Source of the DNA: Massalongia carnosa
Taxonomy: Eukaryota
Reading direction: 5' to 3'
DNA: 64,000 nt
Assembly: GCA_965645245.1 (NCBI GenBank)
Contig: OZ287083.1
Span: 1,426,001 to 1,490,000, forward strand
Shown here piece by piece: positions 1 through 16,512 of this stretch (position 1 is its first letter; each line of letters starts with the position of its first letter). Made by a program: the position numbers and the translations under genes. The notes under the pieces are model-generated. The model worked only from the letters and a program-made list of their open reading frames with translations, made no database searches and was not told where the DNA came from.

Positions 1-1644
1 GGGAGCGTTGTCTTATGGAACGGAGAACGCCAGTCGGGTTTTCTGACTCTTGGTTTATTTCTCTTTTGTTCGTTCTTTTTCGGGTCTTCTTTGGAGCGGG
101 TGGGGTAACACCAATCCCCTCCAAAAAAATCAAAAGCCAGAAATCAATCAGGAGAGAGGAAAAATATATCTCTTTTCAGCCTCTATTTCGCTTGCTTTGC
201 TCGATAACGGCTATTATTATGTACCTACGAAATACTGTACGGAGTACTAGTTGTGATGATGTACGTACTCTGTGAGGGGGGTTTTTTTAGTGGGGGGAGG
301 ATTTTATTATTCAAGTTCAAAACCAACGAACTCGATGTAACTAGTCAGTCAGTTACGAGTGTAATAAACTACATACATATCAATTGACTTTTGAAGATAT
401 GCTAATCATATAGTGTCTAGTTTACCTGACTGCCAGTTTTCTCTCCCTCTCTAAATATCCATCCATCCATCCATCCAACCCCCCCCCCCCTCCACAAAAC
501 CTAAAAAAAACCCACATGTACCGAACCACCGAGTCTGCTGCTGCTGTTGTGTTCGTTCGTTCTCCCCCCCTGTTCGGGAAATCCTTCCCGTTCCTTCGAG
601 ATAAATATCCATCTATTCCACCTGCCTATCAAACTCACAGAATCTCTGGATTAATCCCTTCCTCTCGGGACCGGGGGGGCTTTGGCATTATTTGGTTTCT
701 TTTTGGGAGAAGGGGGGGGGGGAAAGAGGAAAGAAAGATTGATGAATGAAAAAAAAAAAATTTTTCTTCTCTTCCCTTGGCATTTCCGCGGTCTTTCAGT
801 AACTCGATTTCGCCTTTTCTTCTTTCCGTCTTGGTTTGTCTTCCGGCTTCTTTTCCCCCTTTCATTCTTCACTCTTCAGCAGCGCCCCTGTTTTCGATTT
901 CCGTCTTTGTCCTTTCCCCGGCCCCCTCTTTTATTTATTTATTTTTTTTTTCAAAAGTCCTATCTCTCACTCTCTCTCACTCAAGATGCCAGCTTTCCGG
1001 TTTCAACGATTCACCCCCTATTTGAATTTCATGCTTTTTCGTTTGATTTTTTTATTTTAGGGGGAAGGGGGGGGGGGGGGGAGGGTTGGAAGAGGGGTTA
1101 GTTGACTTGATCTATCGTCTTTTGCAAGAAGGAAGAAGGGGAATAAAGAGAAAAAGAACGGATGAAACATAGTAGGAGGGGATTAGAATGGGAGAAGAAG
1201 AAAAAGAAGAACAGTTTGAATTCAAATCAAAATCGAAACATTCCAAGAACAAAAAAACAAAATCCATCTCCATCTCCATCTCCATCATCTTATCTATCCT
1301 CAACAGGAGCAGGAAATGAATGAAAAAGAAAAAAATATATATCCCTACTTGGAGGGAGTTCCTGAAATTAATTGGAAGCGGACGGTGATGTTGGAAGTAA
1401 ATGTTTAAAAGTAAGAGCGTTGCGAGTTTTTCTTTTGTATTCAGAAAGAAGGGGGAGGGGGGGGGCAAAGAGACGAGCCTCTCTGTCCCTTTCGCTCTCT
1501 CCCGCTAGTTATCCGCCAAAATCCCCAATTTCAACCAACAGTAAACCAACCCCCCGTTCACTTTCCTCTTGCATGCATGCCTACCTACCTAGATAGATAC
1601 ATAGATGGATAAATCAACTATCCGAAAACCCCGCAAATCGTCAC

Positions 1645-2871
1645 TCATTGCGTATCCTCCGGCAACGCCACCGCCGTCGTCGCCCGCCCAACTCCAGCGC
1701 TAGCGCCATCATCGCCCTTCGGCGTGGTGCCTCGCGCCACAAACTCCCTTACCCAGCGCCGAACGGTTTGGATTTTCTCCATCGCTTGCGCAGCTCCGCC
1801 CTCATCACCCCCTCTACCTCCACCCTCCTCCTCCCCCCCCTCCAGCTCCCACTCCCGGAACGCCCCCCCGCGATCGCTCGCATCAACCACGTCCCGATAC
1901 AGCAAGTCCAGCGTCGTCGCCTCGCCCCTCAAACTCTGCCCGTACACTTTCCCCCGGAACGCGCTCAGTGCCACGTTCCGCGCCAGCACGACGTCTCGCG
2001 GCCGCAGCCGGGCGGTGGCGGATCGTAGTTGCTCGTTGCGGTATGGGGGCTGCCGATGGGAGGGCGGGGCGGCGGACGGAGAGGAGGGCGGCGGCGGGAG
2101 CCAGAGAGTGATGCCGAAGCCGGCTTTCGTTTCGTCGCCCACGAGCATTTCGACCAGGGCGAGGGGGGAGGCGTGGCGGGTGGTGACGAGTCGGGGGGGA
2201 GGGAGAGCGATGATGCCGACGATCAGGGTGACGGTCATGGTTTGCGGGGTGATGGAATGGAGGTAGGTGGCTGGGGGGATGCGGTTGAGGTTCGTGATGG
2301 GGCTAGCAAGGACGCGGGTCCGGGCTTGCTGGGCGGTGGGGCTTGGAGGGGAGGAGGGGTTTACAGCGTCGGAGATGCTGCTGTCGAGGCTGCAGGGCGA
2401 GCAGAAAGTAGGGGGCATGGAGCCGGGGTCTAACGAGGAGGAGAGGTCTTCGTGCACGGCATAGGAGTGCTCGTAGAATTGCGTAAAGAGGTCTTCGTCG
2501 TCGTTGGGTGGGGAGAGGGAACTTTGCCGAGGAGCTTCGCCCGAGCCGGCGGAGTGGAAGGAGAGATCTGTTGCCGTCAGGAAGGAGCTTTCGGGGGCGA
2601 CATCGTCCCGTGGTTTTGCCGCCGGCGAGTAATCATGATCGATGTGGGAGAGCTGGGTGAAGCCGGTGGGGAGGTGTTCTCGCTCAAGGGGGAGAGATCG
2701 CCATGTTGGTCTGGGTCCTTCGGAGGAAGGAAGTCGGCTCGTCGGGCGGGGGGGGGGCTTTGTCAGGAAGGCCTCTTGCAGCGGAGCGGACAGGAACCGA
2801 TCGTCCCACTTTAGGGAGCTTGCCAATGGCGCACCGGTCAGAACGATGATTCTTCGATCAGAGACCTTCAT
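1645..2871 (-). CDS. OB-fold nucleic-acid-binding protein, SHLD2 (Shieldin subunit 2)-like
   Basis: Intronless ORF; first ATG gives MKVSDRRIIVLTGAP. The C-terminal half has an OB-fold strand pattern (TMTVTLIVGII...LVEMLVGDET..GFGITLW...RPRDVVLARNVAL..FRGKVYGQSL). The family call is by-eye recognition. Confidence 0.75.
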   Translation of the reverse strand: MKVSDRRIIVLTGAPLASSLKWDDRFLSAPLQEAFLTKPPPRPTSRLPSSEGPRPTWRSLPLEREHLPTGFTQLSHIDHDYSPAAKPRDDVAPESSFLTATDLSFHSAGSGEAPRQSSLSPPNDDEDLFTQFYEHSYAVHEDLSSSLDPGSMPPTFCSPCSLDSSISDAVNPSSPPSPTAQQARTRVLASPITNLNRIPPATYLHSITPQTMTVTLIVGIIALPPPRLVTTRHASPLALVEMLVGDETKAGFGITLWLPPPPSSPSAAPPSHRQPPYRNEQLRSATARLRPRDVVLARNVALSAFRGKVYGQSLRGEATTLDLLYRDVVDASDRGGAFREWELEGGEEEGGGRGGDEGGAAQAMEKIQTVRRWVREFVARGTTPKGDDGASAGVGRATTAVALPEDTQ

Positions 2872-5188
2872 TACAGTCTTCGCTGAGGATAAGACCTTTC
2901 GGCCGTGAAGTAATTTCAGCTTGCCGATAGTATTTTTCAAAAAAATTAAATATTTTAAATAGATAAATAAATGAAAGAACGAGGTGCAGTTGAATAGCGA
3001 GAAGAACTCAATAAGAAGCGAAAATCCCGAAATCCGGTTGCAAAGTCAGCTATATATGTAACACAACGAGGAAAACATAGGCTGGAAGTGTTGTATACAT
3101 CAAACTACCCCTTATCCCTTTCACCTATTCACAATTGACGAGAAAATGCCGAGTTTCTTCATCGACCAATAATATACAACAACCTTCCCTATTGCAGATA
3201 TGTAACCACCCGCAGCCAACTAAACCCAATGAAGCGAATAACCTCATGGGACGTACTTGCTTCAGCGACTCCGACCATTTCTATTGCTCCAGCTCCTTGA
3301 GGACGGGTTGGAAAGCACAGAGTCGCCGTGGCATGACTCTTATAGCACGCCCTTCCCCCATCCAAAGTTTCTATTCATCCACAACTTCTTCACGCAGGGT
3401 TCAGCTAACTTGAATGCCTGGTCGGCCTCGACCGTCTTGTAACCTAATTAGCAAAGGTTTTGCTCTTGCCACCGTGTATGTAAAACCCGACGAGTCATAG
3501 ACTTAGAGTTCTGATATCATACGAGTGGGATCCGTTCACGTCGTGTGCCAAGTTGAAGATCACGCGAATATGCTTAAGCGGCTTGCACTCGACTTAACTA
3601 CGATGAAAAGCTACAACGGAATCCCCATTCGCAAAATTCTTTCTACGGCAGTTCCTCGTGTCGCAACAGTTGCGAGTTCGACAGCCCGTGCGATTCCCCA
3701 AATGCGGGAACCAGGCACAGTAGCGGAGCTGTCAGGTTTGCATAGTTCATCCTACCGTGCATTATTCAACACCTTTACCTCGTTCTGCGAGCAGTGCTGA
3801 AGGCAGCCTGCAAAGGCAAAGACAAGTGAAGCGCGGAGAAGAGTGCATCTGCCGGCCTTGTAGAAATAGAACATGGATGGGGGGGAAATGATGAAATCTT
3901 CATTTCATGAAACGAGTTCCTCTCGAACGTGCCGTTGATAACCTTCTGGTTGATATTAAATTTGTGAAGGATCGTGGGGGCTCACAGCGGTGGTTCTAGC
4001 GGCATCTAATAGACTGCTTGTCCCAAAGGCTGCGGTGTGAGCAAGTTTGAGCCTAATAGAGGTGTAATAAACGGCGAGTTGACGCTGTAGACGTCAAACT
4101 GTGATACTTCCATGCTAGGGATAAGGCGAATTTTGATATCTGACGTTGAATGTAGTTATGTGGTGTTGTGATAGCCAAGATTGCCGAGAACCATTAAATA
4201 GCCATTGACCATTTCGTTCGATGGTAGGAGAGAGCGATGACTGGACGAGTGGAAGGGCTTTTGAATAGCTGAGCAAAAAGTGGGGGGTACGACAGATGGT
4301 CTGAAAATGAGCTGATAGATGATGCAAAAGGTGTCGTGAGATGATTAGAATCCGTCAAGATAAAATTTCAAGGAGCAAGGCTTGAACGTGTTCACAATGC
4401 ATATTTGTAGCCACACTGTTGTTCCGGCAAATAGTCCCTTTCCTTTCACTCCCGCTGAAACGGTAGAATGTGGGAATGTCATCAACTCGTAATATCTACA
4501 CTTCGTGTTTCCTTCTGCCCTTTGCCCAAGCGGTCGGATCGACATAGTTTTTTAATTGGCCATGCGATACTAGGACTCAATCCAAATGTTTCCAAGAACT
4601 GCAGCTAGGATTGTAACAATGGCAAAAGGTGAATGTTCTTGAAATTTCCCGAATGTTGGATCTTCAGAACTATCAATCGCAGTTCTACAGGAGATCTGGC
4701 TGCAAGCCACTGGCTCGATCCTCACAGCTTTCATCGTTGGCACACAGATTTCTGGCGTGGAAAGTAGAATTCATCACAACCTCTTGGCTCTGGAGAACAA
4801 GCTCGATACCAAGTTCTCAACTCTAGACACAAAGATCTCGACTTCAGATGCCAAGGTCGAGGAAAAAAGTGAATAAGATTCAGGAAAGGACGAACCTCAA
4901 TATTGCGTTGATCCTCAATCTGCGTAGATTTGCTGACGGTGCAACGAACTTCATGAGCAGCTTTCAAAGAAAAATGCACAAACGTAAAGGCCAGACACAC
5001 TAAACCTCATGCAAATGGGGTGTTTGCTGAGTTCAGCAATGTGACTAAGTCGGCTGAGAATGAGTGACAGGAACCGGAGTATAGCGATCAGAATTTGATT
5101 GAAGGGGTGATCAGTCAGACTGAAAGACGAATGCAAGGCGTGCACAACAACAGCTTGTATCATGCGTCTACATAGGGGCCTAAAGAAA

Positions 5189-5213
5189 GGACGGACGGAC
5201 GGACGGACGGACG
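5189..5213. repeat. (GGAC)n microsatellite
   Basis: ggacggacggacggacggacggacg read directly. Confidence 0.9.
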
Positions 5214-8200
5214 AGGTGCGGAAACATGGCGATGGGATGTTTGTTCGGAGGGTGTGCCTCTCAGTCTCTCAGTTCGTCGTTTTTCGCCGCGTGGTGAGAT
5301 GGAGCAAGTATGACGATGGCTAGGCAAGATCCAACACGTTTTCTAAACACCTACAGTCCAAATCCAATAGTATGATCCCTAGAGTATTCTCATGCACTCA
5401 CCCACCCATCAAGTCTCTCGGTAGGTAAACTTTGCGATCGTGTACACCTGGAGTTGGATGTCGCACTCCTGAACATTATTTCTTGACTGGAAAGGATGAA
5501 ATGATCCGTTGCGGCGCGTGTGCAAGACAATGCCTTTCTCAATCGACATGACTTGAAAGTAACTGCACACCATGATACCCGTTAGCGAGAGCTATGCCAC
5601 CAACAGCAAATGCTCGATGGGATACTCCAACCCCCAGATCTGCATCATGCGGCCGGTAATGCTCGGTACGGGTCCTTTGATGAACCCAGGAAAATTAGGC
5701 ACACAACACACTTGGCACTCCACCCATGGATAGGGAAATCCCAACGCGGAGACTTTCCAATTGCTTAGGGTCTTCTCTAAATGGTGGAGTCAGGCGTAGA
5801 TTGCTGGGTGATTTGGTTGACCACCGTAATCTCACGGACTTAAGTACGCCGAACTGGTTAGCCTTCGTGCAATCTGTGGCTGTGTGGTTGTCGAATTGAT
5901 TCGAGGAATCAATCGCTAGGAACAAGCCCCCGTTTATCCATGATGACCGATGACTTGGTAGGCTTGGCGCAACCTATGGTTTGGATGAAGTTACCAGATT
6001 TAACTCTAGAGGCAAGCCTACCATGATCAGGATGGCTTGTCGCAGATGCGTCGTGGGTGAGCGTGTAATAAAGACTATCAGACTTTGATCTTAGATCTAT
6101 GACGCCACGTGTGTAGCCCAGCATTTCGGGGAAGGGTAGGACGACTGGAAGACTAATCGTAACAGAGCCATGGTTTGAGATCAAGCTATTTTCTTCTTTT
6201 TACGTTCCGGATTTCCGGCTCTACCCACAGGATGGGGGGGAGGTTCTGAGGGGGCAGGTTGAAAAGGCTGAGCTTGTAAGCGACAAACGGGGAAGTCCGT
6301 ACCCTTTTAATATGCAATCCTAAGATTCGTGGCTTACTGCCTGACCATGGAATAAGACTTGGACAACCTTTCCGACCATATCCTGTACAGATGTCAAGGA
6401 AACCGAGATTATGGATCGCGGAACCACGGGCGCCACACCAACGTTTATGTTAGCCCTCTTCGAGGACCTGACGGCCAGGCTGAGAAGAGTAGTGGTTGGC
6501 TTGAAAATTGTTCGTAGAACCGATCTACCATCGAAAAGATTGCACAATCTAAGCGGTGAGCTTCAAGCACGCTTCACGCTTTGAAGGCTGAGCGATGTCG
6601 ATAAACGAACGGACTCGATAGTACGTGTGATCCAAGCTCCAACCTCCACCATCGTGAGTCCATTTCTCCTTTCCTGAGGGTCGACCAGGTAAATGCGGGT
6701 TGATGTGCATGCCTAGCGTCCGCAGTCCAAACCTTGGGACGCTGTCCCACCCACCTCGCTTAGCTGTACTACACAGACCATCCGACTTTGCAGCCATCGC
6801 CCCACGGTAGCTGTTGCCAACATAAGTGGTTTAATAATCAATTTTCCTCCCCCTCCCCCTCCCCTCCCCCCTTAGATCTGGTGGCTTGGCTTTTCTTCCA
6901 CGAATGTTCATGCCTCTCGGACACAACGACGTGACTTAGTCATGAGCTGTGCCACGCTCTTGGCTCTGCTCTTGTTTCTAAGTGATGCAGCCTCGCTTAC
7001 GGAAATGATTGGGGCAACCGTGCGGATTTTTCGTACTGCAGAGCTTCAGACGTGTGATGAAAAAATGTCAGACTTGCATGCAGCCAATGGGGCGGGACCC
7101 AGGAATATGTGCAATCAGAGTTTGGGATTTCCCAAGGATTCCGATCCGGTTGGAAAGTTCACAACGGGCGAAGATCGGCGACGTGTCTTCTATCATTCTT
7201 CTGTCCAAATTCCGGGTTTGGTCTCTGGTTGGCGCCCGCTTCCATAGTTTGGCGGAGGGAAACACTGTGCCGAATACGCTCTAATGCATCCTAATCTATC
7301 TTTCATGAAAGCGGATGACCCGTGCTTGGCGGGGGATCGTAGCTCTACCGTGGTCCATGAGCCGACGAAGACAAGCTTCGTTCGGGGTCGCATGTACTTT
7401 GCGCTCACAAGGAAGCTCTACAGTCTTCTCCAGTCGGTTGTCATCACACCTCGAAGAGAAAGTCTGCAACTCCATAGTACTTTTGGTTTTCTCTCGATTC
7501 ATCGATGTTTGGCCCCCAATCCCAGTCCATGCGTGACTCCTGTCCAACTCTATGAAGCTCTTTGGCTTGAACCCCTCACTTCAAAAATTCCTTTAGCCAG
7601 GGATTCATGAAGTGTGACGTATCAGAAGGTCCCAAAAGTCACAACTGGACGAATGCACTCAATAACCAACCTCGCATTATGAATCGTTAGGCCGTCTTTC
7701 GTGGTCGCTACAATCGGAATGCTTCAACGCCTTGGTGCCACTTGTGGATGATTTCGTGAAGCGCTGTAAAGCCGGAGTAGTTCCATGGTGAGGAGGTAGT
7801 AGTACTCCTTTTCCATTTCTAGTATTTCGAACGGCAGTGGTGCAGCCTTGGGGCCACTAATGTGCTTGTGGAAAGGGTTGTACCAAAAGGCAACCTTTAC
7901 CGCTCAATGCTAGCTGTTAAGCCTCTCCATCAGGTACGGGATATCCGTAAATGGACAACAGCAGTCGCATCGAGTTTCCTCTGGATTGCGAATGCATTGG
8001 GCCTGTCTCCTTTCACCTTCTGGTGCATACATAAAGCCTCTGGTGGGATGAGGGGTACTTATCACTCGGATGAGCAACTAAAGCCACGGATTATGAATTT
8101 TTCCCACTCATTCCTGGTCAAGGGTAAGTGCTTCCGGATAAGTGAAGTTCCACCCGAGCGCAGGCATCCTGATCGAGACATGCTTCTACAGGTGGCTGAA

Positions 8201-10307
8201 AATGGCGCCAAATGGCACCAATGGCACATCCTAAACTCTGTTTGCCTTGGCTAACCGTAAAAGAGGTTCAGGTAGACTAAGCCCAACTAGCCTCGATCCT
8301 GGTTGTCTTTTCAATTGTGTGAGTTGTAAGCGATTTTTAAGATCAATGATTTGCATGTGCCGCGTTGACCATGCGACATGCTGCCCTCATGCATAAGGTC
8401 GTTCGGGTAGCTGCACTTACTAGGGGGACGTCGACTCACTTCTGCTGCATATGTTCCAGTGTAACGACGATGCCTTGATATTAGCACTCTCCACGGGCTT
8501 TTCGACGTCAATTGCGCTCACTTTGGCCTCTCCAATTGCTGGAAACACCCTGCTAGCAATCGTCCCCCCCTCACTCCGTGCCTATCAAGATTCAGTTTTC
8601 GGCGAGAGGACCACAACCACAATCGGAGGATCCTCTCCCCGATGCCCTAAACGGGCCCTGGTTGTTCGTTGCCATCCAATCAGGGAAAGAATCATGTGCG
8701 CTTCCATGGCTCCGCCTTTACCAGCTCAACTTAGCGAGAGTCGGCCAGCAGGGCTCCCCATGCACAAGACTTCGCGATATCGAAAACTCTCCACTCTGCA
8801 CTCCCTATTATTGATGTTTGCCCGCATTGCGATGTCATCGAGCTTGGGGAAAGATGCGGGCGGACTTGATACGCGAAACCTGCAAAAACACCCAAAATAA
8901 TATAGAGCAACCACCTTTGCTCTTCGAGGATTGGCCTAACCAAGTTGCTTATTGTTGAATGCTGTATATACCCAACCTACTTGACCCTTAATACTTGAAC
9001 TTGACTGCGCGATCGCGTATCGACCATCCGCGTGGGCTAAAGCTCCTCTCAAAGCACGCCAGCAGTCATCACGTTCCCTGCAATTCTTCGGCTGAAGTAG
9101 AAATTTCTTGCTTGCAGCTGCGCTTGGTCAACAAACGGGTATCACGACTGGGAAAGCTGCACGTCTGTTTGTTCCCCAAGCACGACGGGAACGCCTTCTC
9201 GAGCTTCCCTGCCCGAGAAAATCCTGCCAAACAAGTAAGCATTTCGGTGTGTTGGCGTACTTCGACGAAGCTAGGGCGTTTGTAAACATTTCTCTTGAAA
9301 GCCGCGATAAATCCTGAAGAACTGCGTCCGAGCCCATATCGTCAATTTCAGGGATCTTTGATAGTGACGAAGCCTGTGAATCTCCTCCAAGACCGTGGTG
9401 GTGGAACGAAGAGGCTTCGCTGCACGAACCGAGTCCGCGTGGCGGTCTCAGAAATAGTCATTGACTTATCATAGGGTTTCGAGGCGCCACATTGATATTC
9501 CCATCTCGATGGTAGTGGAGGAAAGTTTAAAAGATAGCAGAGGTTGTCGGAACGATTGCCATAGCACAAATCCAGCTCGGGGGACCAAACTCGGTGAAAA
9601 TCTCCTGGGAAGACGGTGGGAAGTTGATTGACCATCATACTCTCAGCACACTTTGTGGGATTGAAGTACAAGTGAACCTTCCATAAGTGGGGTGAAGCCG
9701 AAGGTCGGGAAAGTCCTAGCCAGATCCTGGATATCGGTACCCTAGGACCAAACCATTCCTTACTTTTAAAGCGCACTCAGTATTCGCTGCGCCCTTCGCA
9801 CCTCTGTGCGTGGGAAATACTCATTCAGATCATTCCTAGTATCGACTTGCTCCCGCCATTCGTTCATGCTATAAAGATAAAGTACTCTATCCGGCAACTT
9901 AACCCTTCATGATCCTTCATCCCCCATCTAACATCTCGAGGCATCTATTCTTTATTTGTTCTTTGGCACCGCTTTTCACCAAGACTCAAAGGCGTCTTAG
10001 GTTCAGCCCAGCTCTTTAGTCTTGGCCTTGTGGAGTCGACGTTAAAACAAGATTCCTGCTCCGTCCCAAGGGCGGAGTCTTACGCACTGTCAACCACCCT
10101 ACACGTTCCGCTTAAGAGTGCTTTCGAATCCATGGGACCGCGCTGTCGCTCTCTCTGAACGCCTGATCGTGAAGGTTGATAGGTCTTACGCCGGTGATCA
10201 GTAACTGCTCTGGAGGGTCTCTTTCAAGAGACGATCGTTGATTTGGTGTTCTGTATTCCGAGCCTTTTCGAGTGACAAGAAGGCTTATCAGGGTGTGATT
10301 CATCTCC

Positions 10308-12144
10308 ATGAACAACCATCCTCCAACAAACGAAGTCTCGCATCGGCCGCGACTCTCAAGGTAGGGCAGTACCTTTGAAGCTAAAGTGCTCGCCTCACAT
10401 GACATTAGGCAGTCCACTGACCGTGCTTCCACTTAGCCATGACTACAGCCTGACGATTCGCCAGGGGCCGGAGCGTGCAAAGGTTGCCGGCCCCAAGGAG
10501 AAAGGTATGCCTATGGAAGAAAAAATTGCTAATGGGGCATATGCTGATTGAAGCACTGGTTGGTCTAGACCGCAAGCCTATTGATCCTCCACCTATAATA
10601 CAATTACAAATCCGAGACTTGTCAGATCCGGCCCAGTAAGACCCCCCGAAGTATATTATGGGTTCCTACCGCTAACGGCATCAGAAACTATCTTCAAAGT
10701 CCTTACTACTTCATGTGCTGCAATTTATGCGACTCCAACCCTGATCGTCCAACGCACCTTGCTTCTCAGTCAACGCTTGCTGGGACATTAGTCTCCTCGC
10801 TTCATAGGTTAAAGGACATAGACAATACAGGCGAGACAAGCTGCTTAGAAATATAAAGACTATTCGCTGACTGGTTGATGTAGATGGCGGCTTCTTCGTT
10901 TTTGGAGATGTGTCTGTAAAGATCGAAGGCGAATATCGCCTTCGGTTTAGCCTCTTTGAGATGCTCAAGTAACGCCCCACTGGAGGTTTCCCTACAACCT
11001 ACCACTTATAAGTATTATAGGTCAGAAGTTATGTACATTAAATCTATCACCTCCGAGCCTTTCCATGGTAAGAAGCTCTACCAGGTTTACTTTAAGTATG
11101 TCTATTAATAATAATGCAGTCTATTCGCAGAAGAATTTCCCAGGCATGTCCGAGTCCACTTTTCTTTCCCGCTCTTTTGGAGATCAGGGCGTACGTTTGA
11201 GAATCAGGAAAGAGCCTCGGACGTTGCTGTAGGTTAAAATACCCCGGTGCAGATTTGTATATTCTGATCCAAAAATCAGCAAACGACCAGCTCCTTCGAG
11301 TCTACGCTCGGAAGAGTTCACTCGTGCGTACCCTTCACACCAACCCTTTGAGAATCGAGGACCTCAACCACTACTACAACATAAGCACAGCGGGGAGTAT
11401 GGTCCCGCAAGCCCTAAAAGCTTTGCGCCAGGACCTGATGAGCAATCTTCCAAGCGACAGAGGACATCGATAGACTTAACGACTAGAGGAGTCTATACTC
11501 CTGACCAAAGATACAACGAGCGACCCTACGAGGACCACCGTGGCAACTATAACGCGTACACTCCACGAACCCAGCCGCCGCCCAATTACGGATCCAATTA
11601 CGCTCCAAGTCCCCAATCCGTTCCTGGGGCGCAGTCAGAATACTCCTTCAGACACCAGCGTACGAATTCCTCATCTACATCATCGCCCTACGTCTCCCCA
11701 CGAACCGAAGTCCCAGGCTATATGTCATCCGCAACGAATCTATCGTACCCTTCGCAGCCGAGGGATACAATGTTTCCCTATCAACAAAGCCAATACTCGA
11801 TGGTCCCACCAAGGCAATCGGCACAACTCACGCAACAAGTTGCTGCGTATCGGCCTCACGCTCCTCCTGAGCAAACCCAGACAGCTTCCTACACCCCGTA
11901 CGCACGAGTGCCACCCATTGATGATCACTCTATATTGAATCCGAGGCCTTCTTCCGGGTCATTTCCTATACTTTCAAATCATCAGAGCGATATCCGTCCT
12001 ACAATTACATCGCAATCTTCAGACCCCTTAGTAACAGGCCGGCAGCAGCAATTTCGCTCTAACCTGCCTAATCTGCTGCCACCCCTAGAGTCTACCGTAA
12101 CATCAGGGCAGCCTCGTGGGTCAACATTCACAAGCTTGCAGTGA
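10308..12144 (+). CDS. vosA: Velvet-domain transcription regulator, VosA-like (8 exons)
   Basis: Manual splicing with introns 10361-10436, 10505-10568, 10636-10684, 10831-10883 (GC-AG), 10969-11020, 11068-11119 and 11229-11279 gives [32 protein letters not shown]...[10 protein letters not shown]...[45 protein letters not shown]...[28 protein letters not shown]. This is an N-terminal velvet domain followed by a P/S/Q-rich tail. Confidence 0.92.
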
Positions 12145-12887: not shown

Positions 12888-15800
12888 ATGGTTGAAAACC
12901 CACGTTTTGTGCGTTCGATCAGAAGTGTCGATGTCTGCGCAGCTTGGGATGGCTTGCCAACCCATTTGGTCCAGGCCAAAATCAAGATTAGAGTATACAA
13001 GCCTTTTGTGTACCCTTCTCTGCCTGTATTGACCTCTCCAGATCGAGTCTGAACCCGGTACGCAGTATGTACTGTTCGATGCGACTGGCTACTCTGGAAA
13101 CACTGCCACTGTTCGCAACATTCGCAGAATTACCAGTACATTTCCAGCACCAACTTTAAGTGATGCGCAATGTCCGTGGCACGGACTCTCGGAGGATACT
13201 TTGGTGGCTTTGGACGATCAAGCTGTTCTTCCAGAATTGCAACCTCTCGCTTCAGAGGTGGATAATTGTAGTATCGGTGTTGCTAACGTAGCTCCAAGCA
13301 CCAAGCGACGTCTCTTCCCAATATTCCGTTCGACAGGTCCATGTCGTTCCAGGTCTGGATGCAGCTCCAGTCGTTCGTTTTCCATGACTACCGCTTGCAC
13401 GAAGGAAGGTTTCCTGGTACAGCCTTCAGCAGTACATTTGGTAGGGTGTCAAAGCCAGGTTATGCCAGTACCTTTTGCAGTCAGCGAAGGGACTCGATCT
13501 ATGTCTGCGGGTACGGTCGAGATCCACCGGGCACCGATATGGCCACGAGAGCATTGGAAGATTGGTAGCACAAAGCGAGAGAACAGAGGTAAATGGAATA
13601 TCCCGAAGCAAGCATGGAAGTCGCCCAGCCAAGAAGATTTTTTGTCGTCGATTAAATCAAAGATATCTACAACGAAGTACACTCTGTCGAAAACAAATAG
13701 TACTAGAATTAGCAATCTCAATTCGGCCTGCCTACCAACAGCTCTCCTGAGTGAGCCTATATCGATATGGGATCTTCCGAGGCCTTCCCTTAACCAACGC
13801 GCTCTCATTTTTCGAAAAATCCCACCAGCTACCAAATGCAATATTCCGACAACCCCACGAATATATAGCGACAAAACTAAAGCTGGAGCTTGGATTGGCT
13901 CGGAAACGGAGAACTCTCAGAGATACCCAAGTTCTTCGTCGGAAAATCGGGTCTCGATTCCTCCAACTTTGGCCTTGCACGGGAGCGACGAGACACAGAA
14001 GCAGGAATTTCCTTGCAAGAATCGGTCAGGCTTCCTCCAAAAAACGCACATCACGGTGCCAGACCCCAAAAATTACAGCCCTTTGTCTCAGTACTGTCTC
14101 CAACATATTAGTGGATCGTTGTCCCCCGAGAGTCCCTTGCAGATGTGGCTTCGGAGGAAAGGATCAAGCAGCGATTATTCTCTACCACCAACTATGGCAC
14201 CCCTAAAGGCTGGTAGTGATCCTTATTGGGTTATAGAAGAGGCAAAAATCCAGATTCGTTTCCCGAATGACATTTGGCCTGGCATCTATGAGGTTGAGAT
14301 AGAGGCAAACATACTACTCTCTACGCCAGATGGCAAGGGTTGGCTGGAATTTATCTTACCCGGCATTCCCCCTTTACAAGAAGCAGCGCTCTTTGGCAAC
14401 GTTGATTTTCAGATTGGGCTTCTCTCTAACCAGTCAAAGACAATCGGCGAAACCAAGTATGATATGGACAAGCCTGGTTCTGCTAGGGCCCAGTTTGATA
14501 CAAGCTTCCTGACAGACGTTATAACAAGCCCAGACAGGATGCGAGTATCCGGTCGATTCTGCCCACAAGGCCCTAAACTCCTGAGACTGCGCTTGAAGTC
14601 GAAGATATTTAGCATTGACACCTGGGATGGATCTGTTACGTTTTGTACAACTCCACTATATGCTGAAGGCGCAGACATGCATTTGAGTCATCATGCTACT
14701 TTGGAGATGGAAACGTCAAAAATGGATATTTTTGCCGACCGTCTGAGCTTCTCATTTTTAATTAAAAATGGCGGTCGAAGTACACGGGAGTACGAGCTGA
14801 AGAGTGGCCAAAATTCCATTGACCTCGAAGAACGCAGTAGTCAAATGGGTTGTTTGGCACCAAACGACGAAGCGGAGATTAAAATATTCCGTGATACGGA
14901 AGAACTGGGGATACCACTCGAGATTTTTCTTGTTTCATGCTATGGGACGCAAAGTCCAGTGAGTATAGCATTACCAACAATACGACCTGTACTTGGAAAA
15001 CTATTTTCTGAGCAAATTATCCTTATCAAACCTCGGCCGCCTTTGATCATGAAACACATGGAGAGAGGATATTTTGGTACTTGGAAAAGGATTGATAAGG
15101 TAGACGGCCCGATTCATAGCATGCGTTTCAGTCGAGTTGAGTTACCCCACCTGTTTCCAGAGGGACTTAAAGACGATGTTGTCGTTAGGTTCATGGAGCT
15201 CCCACCAATTCGATTCACAGCGCTGGAGCCATCAGACGACGGCCTGGATCTAGAAAAGACGTCGGAGCTTATATGGGATCTTAATATCCAAATTGATAAA
15301 GTTTGCGGTCGAAACCTCGAGTGTCGGATGAAGCTAAGAAAAGAAGTTGGGGAAAGTGAGCGAGTCTTGACATTTGACGCCCAAAGTTGGGTCCCAGATC
15401 TAAGTATCATCAATGGGCGATTGGCAACACAGGAAGTTGGAGAGTGGCGTGAGGACGAAAAAGGATACATGGCAATGTTTCGTCCTACAACCATGCTACT
15501 AGGACAGGTAATTGAAGTCGAAATGCGTTGGAGGGTTTCCTTTAACCTCGACAACATTGAAGACAGCGGTGTAAATAAGCCAAAGCTTGAGTATGACATC
15601 CCGAAAATCATTGGGAGATCGGTCCTTGGAGGCTCCTTCACCTGCAAGGTGGGAAATGGTATGCACCAAGCATCCCTCCGCGCGTCTTTACCTTCACTAA
15701 CATACTCAATAGCGATGCTAATCTTGGATGATGGCCAAGCCCAAAGCGTAGCCATTCAGTTCTCAAATATGTATTCTCAGAACAAAATCCAGCTGCCAAA

Positions 15801-16512
15801 GTTACGCAAGAATTACAATATGCGTTTGTATTTCCGTCCGATGATTCCTCGTTCACCAAGGATCGTTCGGTTTGAAGACGAATGCTCCAGCTCCAGCTCC
15901 AGCTCCAGCTCCAGCTCCAGCTCCAGCGATGCCTCACAAGAGACTGATGATCGGGTAGAGCCTATCATTGAAGGCGAATCGCCTATCTCTTTAGAGCTCG
16001 ATCAACTTCCAAGGGTTATACAGAGCTCCCGTTATGGTGATGAGATTCTTGATCTTCCCCGTCATCATTTCGGACAAGCTATTGCAACGTTCCGTAGCCT
16101 CGTCGTTCCCTTACTGCTGATCACCGCAGCTCAAATTCTCCTTGCGCAGATCGGAAACATATGGGTTCCTTCCGCTACGGGGAGCTTCTTCTTACCAACC
16201 CCCCGTCCTGATGCCGATTCCAAATGGATTGAAAATCGAGCGAGCCGCCATCTTGAACGATCTCTCCCACACCCGCAGGCCACTGAGTCCCGCCTTAAAC
16301 CTACCATGCGATCCGATGCGATAGAGCTCGTTTCCACGCATGTGAGTTTCACGACGAGAGAATTCCATGAGCGGGGACAAGATGGCGAGACGAATGTCGG
16401 GATATCCTCCATCGCCGCAGGGGAACCAGAGCGTGCGAGGTCGTCGAGCGAGGTAACCGGGATGATAGATTGGATAGACCGTGCATTAGGGTGGAAGGAT
16501 GTTACAGCGTGA
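12888..16512 (+). CDS. Large uncharacterised protein (~1170 aa) with beta-rich regions, a poly-Ser tract and a probable single TM segment near the C-terminus
   Basis: The 1103-aa ORF is open upstream to an acceptor at 13041. ATG 12888 plus a phase-0 intron 12993-13041 (GTATAC...TTGAC..CAG) joins in frame. A probable in-frame 54-nt intron lies at 15659-15712. Hydrophobic stretch LVVPLLLITAAQILLAQIG. Confidence 0.75.
15886..15927 (+). repeat. (TCCAGC)7 coding hexanucleotide repeat encoding Ser14
   Basis: Seven perfect units read directly. Confidence 0.9.

Follow-up and report, generated by a model that had tools for sequence, protein, structure and literature searches.

The N-terminus of human SHLD2 (FAM35A) carries the elements that join it to its Shieldin partners: strand 1 (V7, H8, I9, F10, W11) binds open REV7/SHLD3, residues K37, I39, L41, Y43, L48 and L50 bind open REV7 and SHLD3 as well (PMC7181697, PMC7923543), and the P14A/P17A substitution abolishes REV7 binding (PMC6156606). 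The disordered SHLD2 linker holds a conserved SQ site (PMC6003645) and a conserved helix, residues 237-255, predicted to dock on the OB folds of the protein (PMC10398656). HHpred has likened the FAM35A OB folds to POT1 (PMC6156606), and the OB2-OB3 region is where SHLD1 attaches, with a contact to CTC1 also predicted there (PMC10398656, PMC6156606). SHLD1-3 are stated to be undetectable outside vertebrates or animals (PMC11526942, PMC6003645, PMC6156606), and the available text of PMC11377751 makes no mention of fungi.

A Shieldin-like pathway has nevertheless been reported in the fungus Cryptococcus neoformans. Its NHEJ factor Njf1 (650 aa) co-purifies with Rev7, Rif1 and Rev3, and modelling made it a ligand of the Rev7 seatbelt in the manner of SHLD3; according to the available text, Njf1 is found in basidiomycetes only and the ancestry of the pathway is not traceable beyond them (PMC11526942). 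The preliminary description of the locus analyzed here had suggested that fungi may carry a minimal Shieldin-like module, although Shieldin is usually described as animal-restricted. Any view of such a pathway as entirely new in fungi has to be narrowed, because the Cryptococcus pathway was already reported (PMC11526942) and Pfam already labels part of the fungal family described below automatically as SHLD2_OB1. New here are the range of this family across Dikarya and a checkable candidate, CNAG_03411, in a purified fungal Rev7 complex. We propose, with a probability of roughly 55%, that the gene encodes a mini-SHLD2, in which a docking region at the N-terminus is joined by a disordered linker to the first OB fold only.

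The gene and its fungal family

The window, a stretch of 64,000 nucleotides from Massalongia carnosa, contains a genuine gene near its beginning (Table 1). In agreement with the preliminary description, a single uninterrupted frame on the minus strand starts with an ATG at position 2871, comprises 408 codons and a stop, and ends at 1645; the plus strand of this interval is broken by stops. The protein starts with MKVSD-RRIIVLTGAP and ends with LPEDTQ. The segment RRIIVLTGAP, originally taken for its beginning, is therefore present as residues 6-15, and the true start is MKVSD. A copy-number search of the genome returned one match among two candidates. Positions 1500-3100 lie within one public contig with zero differing letters, and this contig is possibly the assembly's own source.

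Upstream of the gene, about 8 kb (window 2900-11200) hold no frame above 160 codons and no evident gene, and an unbroken frame of 1159 codons on the plus strand (13033-16512) could not be assigned a name by eye. The genes in window 17777-63280 presumably encode a beta carbonic anhydrase, an NRAMP transporter, Snf7/Vps60, a SIT4-associated protein, an ankyrin protein, a 3-keto-steroid reductase, an ING PHD protein, ribosomal L7Ae, Stu2/XMAP215, LIS1/NudF and an F-box/WD40 protein. No link to DNA repair was seen among these presumed neighbouring genes in the window.

Searches with phmmer identified 513 homologous proteins at E<=1e-3 (8000 scored candidates) and 543 family representatives at 50% identity. 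The best named matches are from lichen fungi, for example Sticta and Pseudocyphellaria; named members also come from Aspergillus, Penicillium, Knufia, Thyridium, Monosporascus, Sodiomyces, Plectosphaerella, Xylona, Thelocarpon and Cirrosporium. Except for one that bears an unrelated name, these members are annotated as hypothetical or as "nucleic acid-binding (OB-fold)". The name of P0200, mannose-1-phosphate guanyltransferase, and the annotated fusion of P0398 with a short-chain dehydrogenase (711 aa) both look like errors of gene model or naming. Lengths among the 150 listed representatives range from 114 to 521 aa; 126 of them were aligned with the query after removal of 24 entries that were cut or had an N-terminal extension, and eight residues are invariant in the resulting 127 sequences (G13, P15, W57, P199, D246, W257, D293 and W373). 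Because of these invariant residues and the 513 and 543 homologues, we regard this as a conserved family and not a chance ORF.

Longer proteins were also considered. A weak search with the family alignment for homologues of 826-2355 aa gave 0 of 7997 scored candidates, and lengths of 715-825 aa were covered solely by the 50%-identity representative search. In the ESM Atlas, the family reaches Basidiomycota (clusters at 0.95, with 208/256 features, and at 0.90, with 186 features), and according to these clusters it is found in both Ascomycota and Basidiomycota (Dikarya). A hypothetical Ascomycota cluster at Atlas rank 5 (520 aa, 79 members, 0.83, 144 shared features) may represent a branch of the family that is longer or has diverged further. 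A literature search, with subscription journals mostly outside its coverage, found no paper on the family or naming CNAG_03411.

Motifs, linker and OB fold

Table 1. Location of the gene and of its protein features in the window, with conservation in the family alignment.
Feature	Window positions	Strand	Conservation or other support
Intron-free ORF, 408 aa (P0001), single copy in genome	1645..2871	-	Full-length alignment to homologues
Residues 6-15, hydrophobic strand + G-A-P	2827..2856	-	G13 127/127, A14 113/127, P15 127/127
Residues 19-35, S-L-x-W...L...F segment, short predicted helices	2767..2817	-	L20 118/127, W22 117/127, L27 118
Residues 55-73, P-x-W-R-x-L-P-L + H-L-P-T-G-x-[ST]-Q	2653..2709	-	W57 127/127, R58 124/127
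Residues 94-105, short F-centred linker motif + helix	2557..2592	-	F97 111/126; helix 100-104
Residues 123-147, linker helix L-[ST]-Q-[FY]-Y-E-H-S + S-S-Q	2431..2505	-	Y133 120/127, S136 126/127, H140 122/127
Residues 178-382, single OB fold of POT1/RPA70/TEBP type, C-terminal helix	1726..2340	-	Invariant W257
Residues 403-408, L-P-x-D-T-Q	1648..1665	-	T-Q in 99/127

A hydrophobic-hydrophobic-x-G[ASP]P motif is present in 131 of the 150 representatives; the other 19 comprise 15 N-terminally cut entries and four variants outside the pattern. Conservation of the GAP motif among fungal orthologues, which had been set as a test of the SHLD2 proposal, was thus found, with both G13 and P15 in all 127 aligned sequences. 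The position of P15 matches that of human P14 when counted from V7-W11, and residues 6-15 are a candidate equivalent of SHLD2 strand 1 (V7-W11) and P14, with human G12-A13 in between as quoted in the preliminary description. Conservation does not extend to the second proline, P17 in human SHLD2: in column 18, S stands in 47, D in 15 and A in 12 of the 127 sequences, and a proline at +2 from P15 is seen in 18. Further along, W57-R58-x-L60-x-L62 shows the same alternation as human K37/I39/L41 at a longer spacing (31-64 residues, median 44, from the G13-type G to the W57-type W), and residue 60 is aliphatic in 125/127. As judged by sequence, residues 55-73 are a candidate equivalent of SHLD2 strands 2-3 (K37, I39, L41), of which strand 2 sandwiches SHLD3; in SHLD2 the G-to-W spacing would be about 24, W36 presumably being the human counterpart. 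No conserved PxxxxP Rev7-binding motif was found across the family alignment. The tails of a few representatives show a P-x-x-x-P-P spacing like that of the Rev7-binding motif, which is not family-wide.

The long S/P/D-rich disordered linker noted earlier is evident from both composition and modelling: residues 74-190 contain 24 S, 14 P and 12 D in 117 residues, and their pLDDT is mostly <60 except for two helices. The helix of residues 123-147 has a pLDDT of ~90 in the full-length model, compared with ~81 in the N-terminal piece alone, and in the modelled structure it probably docks on the OB fold. Residues 94-98 may resemble the acidic-T-x-F-L motif with which, we assume, SHLD2 helix 237-255 begins. 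Four S/T-Q columns are conserved, every one outside the OB fold, among them 72 (84/127), 130 (93/127) and 146 (86/127); other [ST]-X pairs have <=3 such conserved columns each. The total S/T-Q count is 754 compared with 460+/-19 in shuffled sequences (150 sequences, related and non-independent). Near the C-terminus, P-x-D-[TS]-[QP] is present in 132 of the 150 representatives, and L-P-x-D-T-Q is a candidate phosphosite or docking motif. Several representatives end in a W-D-x-P-P-x-D-T-Q-like tail.

The preliminary description had the protein end in an OB-like domain. The OB fold is indeed there (residues ~178-382), and a 26-residue tail with the conserved LPxDTQ comes after it; no OB2, OB3 or Zn ribbon is present. 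The strand pattern that had been quoted from the first OB fold of SHLD2 was recovered, namely V244-x-D246-x-T248...I254-x-L-W257 and R292-D-V-V-L296...V300...G307...Q312-S313. Residues R227, R232, F305 and R315 of the OB fold are near-invariant.

Folded alone, residues 1-150 gave a pTM of 0.26, compared with 0.68 for the full-length protein. Such an unfolded N-terminal piece is expected if its motifs fold on a partner; the model was kept out of the fold search, since low-confidence models give meaningless matches. The same two values suggest that some of the motifs can pack against the OB fold of the same protein, as they might if it were a fungal ssDNA adaptor with one OB that arose independently within the RPA70/POT1/SSB superfamily and has the build of HROB, SPATA22 or hSSB1. 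Single-OB adaptors of this kind (HROB, SPATA22, hSSB1/archaeal SSB) combine short motifs, a linker and one OB. Under this explanation, which we consider rather unlikely, the N-terminal motifs would fold on their own OB or have a partner outside the HORMA proteins, resemblance to the GAP segment would be coincidental, and the Pfam SHLD2_OB1 labels would reflect generic OB similarity. However, the correct order of the two N-terminal motifs and the same overall layout would also have to be a coincidence.

Relationship to SHLD2 and other OB families

The best solved folds matching the OB domain are POT1 OB1/TEBP and RPA70 DBD-B, which tie, with 12-14% identity to the matches; Foldseek also returned a match to human SSB. 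Residue W257 aligns with the RPA70-B Trp, to which we ascribe a DNA-stacking role, and the model suggests that the OB fold may bind ssDNA. No SHLD2 OB chain is among the listed fold matches, and this does not rank SHLD2, because the solved part of Shieldin is the SHLD3-REV7-SHLD2 subcomplex only (PMC10398656). POT1-like best folds are expected for a SHLD2 relative, since the FAM35A OB folds themselves were likened to POT1. Nevertheless, the tie of POT1, TEBP and RPA70 is in line with an independent adaptor, and so are the sole PDB sequence matches of the family profile, archaeal SSB/RPA including Sulfolobus SSB (E 3e-4, weak). SHLD2(1-52) was not retrieved among PDB sequences at E<=10 by either the family profile or residues 1-60, with the caveat that such searches may overlook short motifs interrupted by a 20-residue insertion.

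Profile searches gave a similar picture. P0001 has no OB Pfam match, either full-length or with the domain alone. Among 117 representatives, sub-threshold matches at E<=0.5 were obtained with REPA_OB_2 for 27 (best 1.7e-4), Ssb-like_OB for 13, SHLD2_OB1 for six (best 0.062, all below cut-off) and POT1 for one (weak). REPA_OB_2 matched 12 of 32 close relatives and SHLD2_OB1 none of them, nor any in a further set of 29 members (0/29). The larger number of members scored by RPA and SSB profiles than by SHLD2_OB1 favours the adaptor, as does the below-cut-off match that PF21669 (SHLD2_OB1) gave in an archaeal control genome; the PF21669 search of the organism's own genome found nothing. Pfam scans of the query and relatives gave no HROB or SPATA22 family matches.

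What speaks against an adaptor unrelated to Shieldin is the ESM Atlas, where the three nearest named clusters, from two phyla, carry SHLD2_OB1 and not an RPA or POT1 family. The nearest is from Ascomycota (0.96, PF21669 on 19% of 114 members), and the next two are the Basidiomycota clusters (0.95, 26% of 70 members; 0.90, 18% of 107). With POT1, SSB, tRNA_anti-codon and CDC24 families skipped, the chordate FAM35A cluster appears at rank 6 (0.76, 113 features), which is a lead only; POT1 clusters stand above it (0.80 and 0.79), and the rankings with and without the skipped families are one source. The proposed SHLD2 homology thus gains from three Atlas clusters, whose members carry PF21669 in 18-26% of cases, and from the second N-terminal motif, but a clear SHLD2 preference among OB families, also set as a test, was not seen: POT1 clusters rank higher and RPA profiles match more members.

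The resemblance of the fold to POT1 OB1 and RPA70 DBD-B would fit a diverged POT1 or RPA1 orthologue; the frame might also not be a functional gene. To these two readings together we assign only a very small probability. The query shows neither a match to the POT1/POT1PC profiles nor tandem OB folds, no four-OB architecture of the RPA70 type and no REPA_OB_2 match over cut-off. Canonical genes for both proteins exist elsewhere in the genome, RPA1 as a separate gene on contig C18 and two POT1-family genes with PF02765 over cut-off on contigs C5 (L012) and C1 (L013), whose open frames are 587 and 1523 codons long. Together with hundreds of full-length homologues that share invariant residues, these separate genes largely refute both readings.

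Partner genes and the Cryptococcus complex

Genes for two Shieldin-pathway partners were located in the genome. Rev7 is a two-exon gene of contig C8 (L006 1330-1566 and 1898-2623), and its relatives match human REV7 (E 6e-32) better than MAD2 (1e-13); Rif1 is on contig C5. The Rev7 HORMA domain has Pro-rich and acidic insertions, and the gene escaped a search of the genome with the Pfam HORMA profile, whose matches we take to be Hop1 and Mad2. Profile searches of this genome are insensitive, since the HORMA profile found Hop1 and Mad2 yet missed Rev7. The SHLD3-like FxPWFP pattern had four matches in the genome, the same number as a control pattern, and none was SHLD3-like by eye; PF08939, used in the SHLD3 search, gave no candidates in the organism's own genome and matched nowhere, and hence is uninformative.

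The Cryptococcus data contain a further candidate. In the untreated Njf1 pull-down, the normalised areas are 0.94 for Njf1, 0.51 for Rev7 and 0.32 for CNAG_03411, and rank 4 lies 87-fold lower (ranks 1-12); Zeocin treatment gave 1.68, 1.06 and 0.88, and ranks 3-49 have at most 0.01 against those three (PMC11526942, supplementary file 5, sheets H and I). CNAG_03411 is a hypothetical protein of 420 aa, unnamed in the available main text (PMC11526942). Two points speak against the lead: the protein is also present in untagged controls, with 0.021 in that with Zeocin (42-fold enrichment) and 0.11 in one where Njf1 also shows, and its deletion falls in no phenotype cluster (PMC11526942). The Njf1:Rev7:CNAG_03411 ratios of area to mass are ~1:1.5:0.5 untreated and 1:1.8:0.8 with Zeocin, which are crude values from one replicate each. 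They recall the 1:2:1 stoichiometry of Shieldin. CNAG_03411 could be a relative of the fungal OB family, a lead given by its length and context; two scans of metagenome contigs for its locus had 0 matches each. By analogy, a Rev7-Rif1-linked NHEJ complex with an abundant 420-aa third component lends circumstantial support to a mini-SHLD2.

We also entertain, tentatively, a broader possibility: Shieldin would be ancestral to fungi and animals, the family would be the fungal SHLD2 with CNAG_03411 as its Cryptococcus member, and the pull-down would contain intact Shieldin. Njf1 would then act as SHLD3 with two Rev7 and one mini-SHLD2 (~1:1.5-1.8:0.5-0.8), model-yeast lineages would have lost Shieldin, and one OB would be enough for the core function.

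Alternatively, a true SHLD2 relative may have shifted its job, binding Rev7 or another HORMA protein not for end protection in NHEJ but to help Pol zeta fill gaps, or for a telomeric or meiotic role. The presence of Hop1 and Mad2 in the genome would suit such a role, as would telomere-end proteins as best solved folds and a query without the OB2-OB3 region, which in SHLD2 binds SHLD1. In Cryptococcus, Rev3 co-purifies with Njf1, and the CNAG_03411 deletion, placed in no phenotype cluster in the available data, does not group with the NHEJ genes (Njf1 is in "NHEJ", Rev7 in "DNA repair 2"); however, the sole characterised fungal Rev7-Rif1 complex that we found acts in NHEJ (PMC11526942). Since two separate POT1-family genes also argue against it, we consider a shifted job improbable.

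The mini-SHLD2 that we favour might work as follows. The hydrophobic-GAP strand would slot into open Rev7 and be locked there by a strand from a SHLD3/Njf1-like partner, which would also capture a second, closed Rev7 and bind Rif1, and the W-R strand would complete the Rev7-partner sheet. The linker would tether the OB fold, which would bind short 3' ssDNA tails at breaks, limiting resection and favouring end joining or Pol-zeta fill-in. Tel1/Mec1 would tune the module by phosphorylating its S/T-Q sites, and recruitment of SHLD1/CST via OB2-OB3 would be absent or done otherwise. The gene, its fold, its motifs and the partner genes have been demonstrated; all of these interactions and functions are inferred. 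Pairwise AF2 misses the human SHLD2-REV7 contact when SHLD3 is absent (PMC10398656), a point of relevance for modelling the fungal pair. If the proposal is true, the origin of Shieldin moves back to the fungal-animal ancestor, docking strands and OB1 define its minimal core, and the 53BP1-RIF1-Shieldin question opens to Neurospora and Aspergillus genetics. A mini-SHLD2 might also explain in part why filamentous fungi are so strongly biased towards end joining, a point of importance for gene targeting.

Compared with known systems, the fungal protein resembles vertebrate SHLD2/FAM35A in the order of its parts: an N-terminal hydrophobic strand with GAP, then a candidate second strand of W/basic/aliphatic type, a disordered linker that bears S/T-Q and a conserved helix, and an RPA70/POT1-like OB. 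It differs in having 408 aa and one OB, whereas SHLD2 has 835-904 aa and three, in being without the 4-Cys Zn ribbon and the SHLD1-binding region, and in the query's having no PF21669 match; the family has no conserved second proline, a longer gap between strands and an extra C-terminal PxDTQ. With HROB, SPATA22 and hSSB1/archaeal SSB it shares a disordered region and one OB fold, and its long motif-bearing N-terminal arm on a single OB sets it apart from POT1/TEBP-alpha OB1 and RPA70 DBD-B. The Cryptococcus Njf1-Rev7(-Rif1, Rev3) complex is likewise fungal, and its unnamed CNAG_03411 is near the family's length; Njf1 itself, at 650 aa, was modelled as a SHLD3-like seatbelt ligand and is reported from basidiomycetes only.
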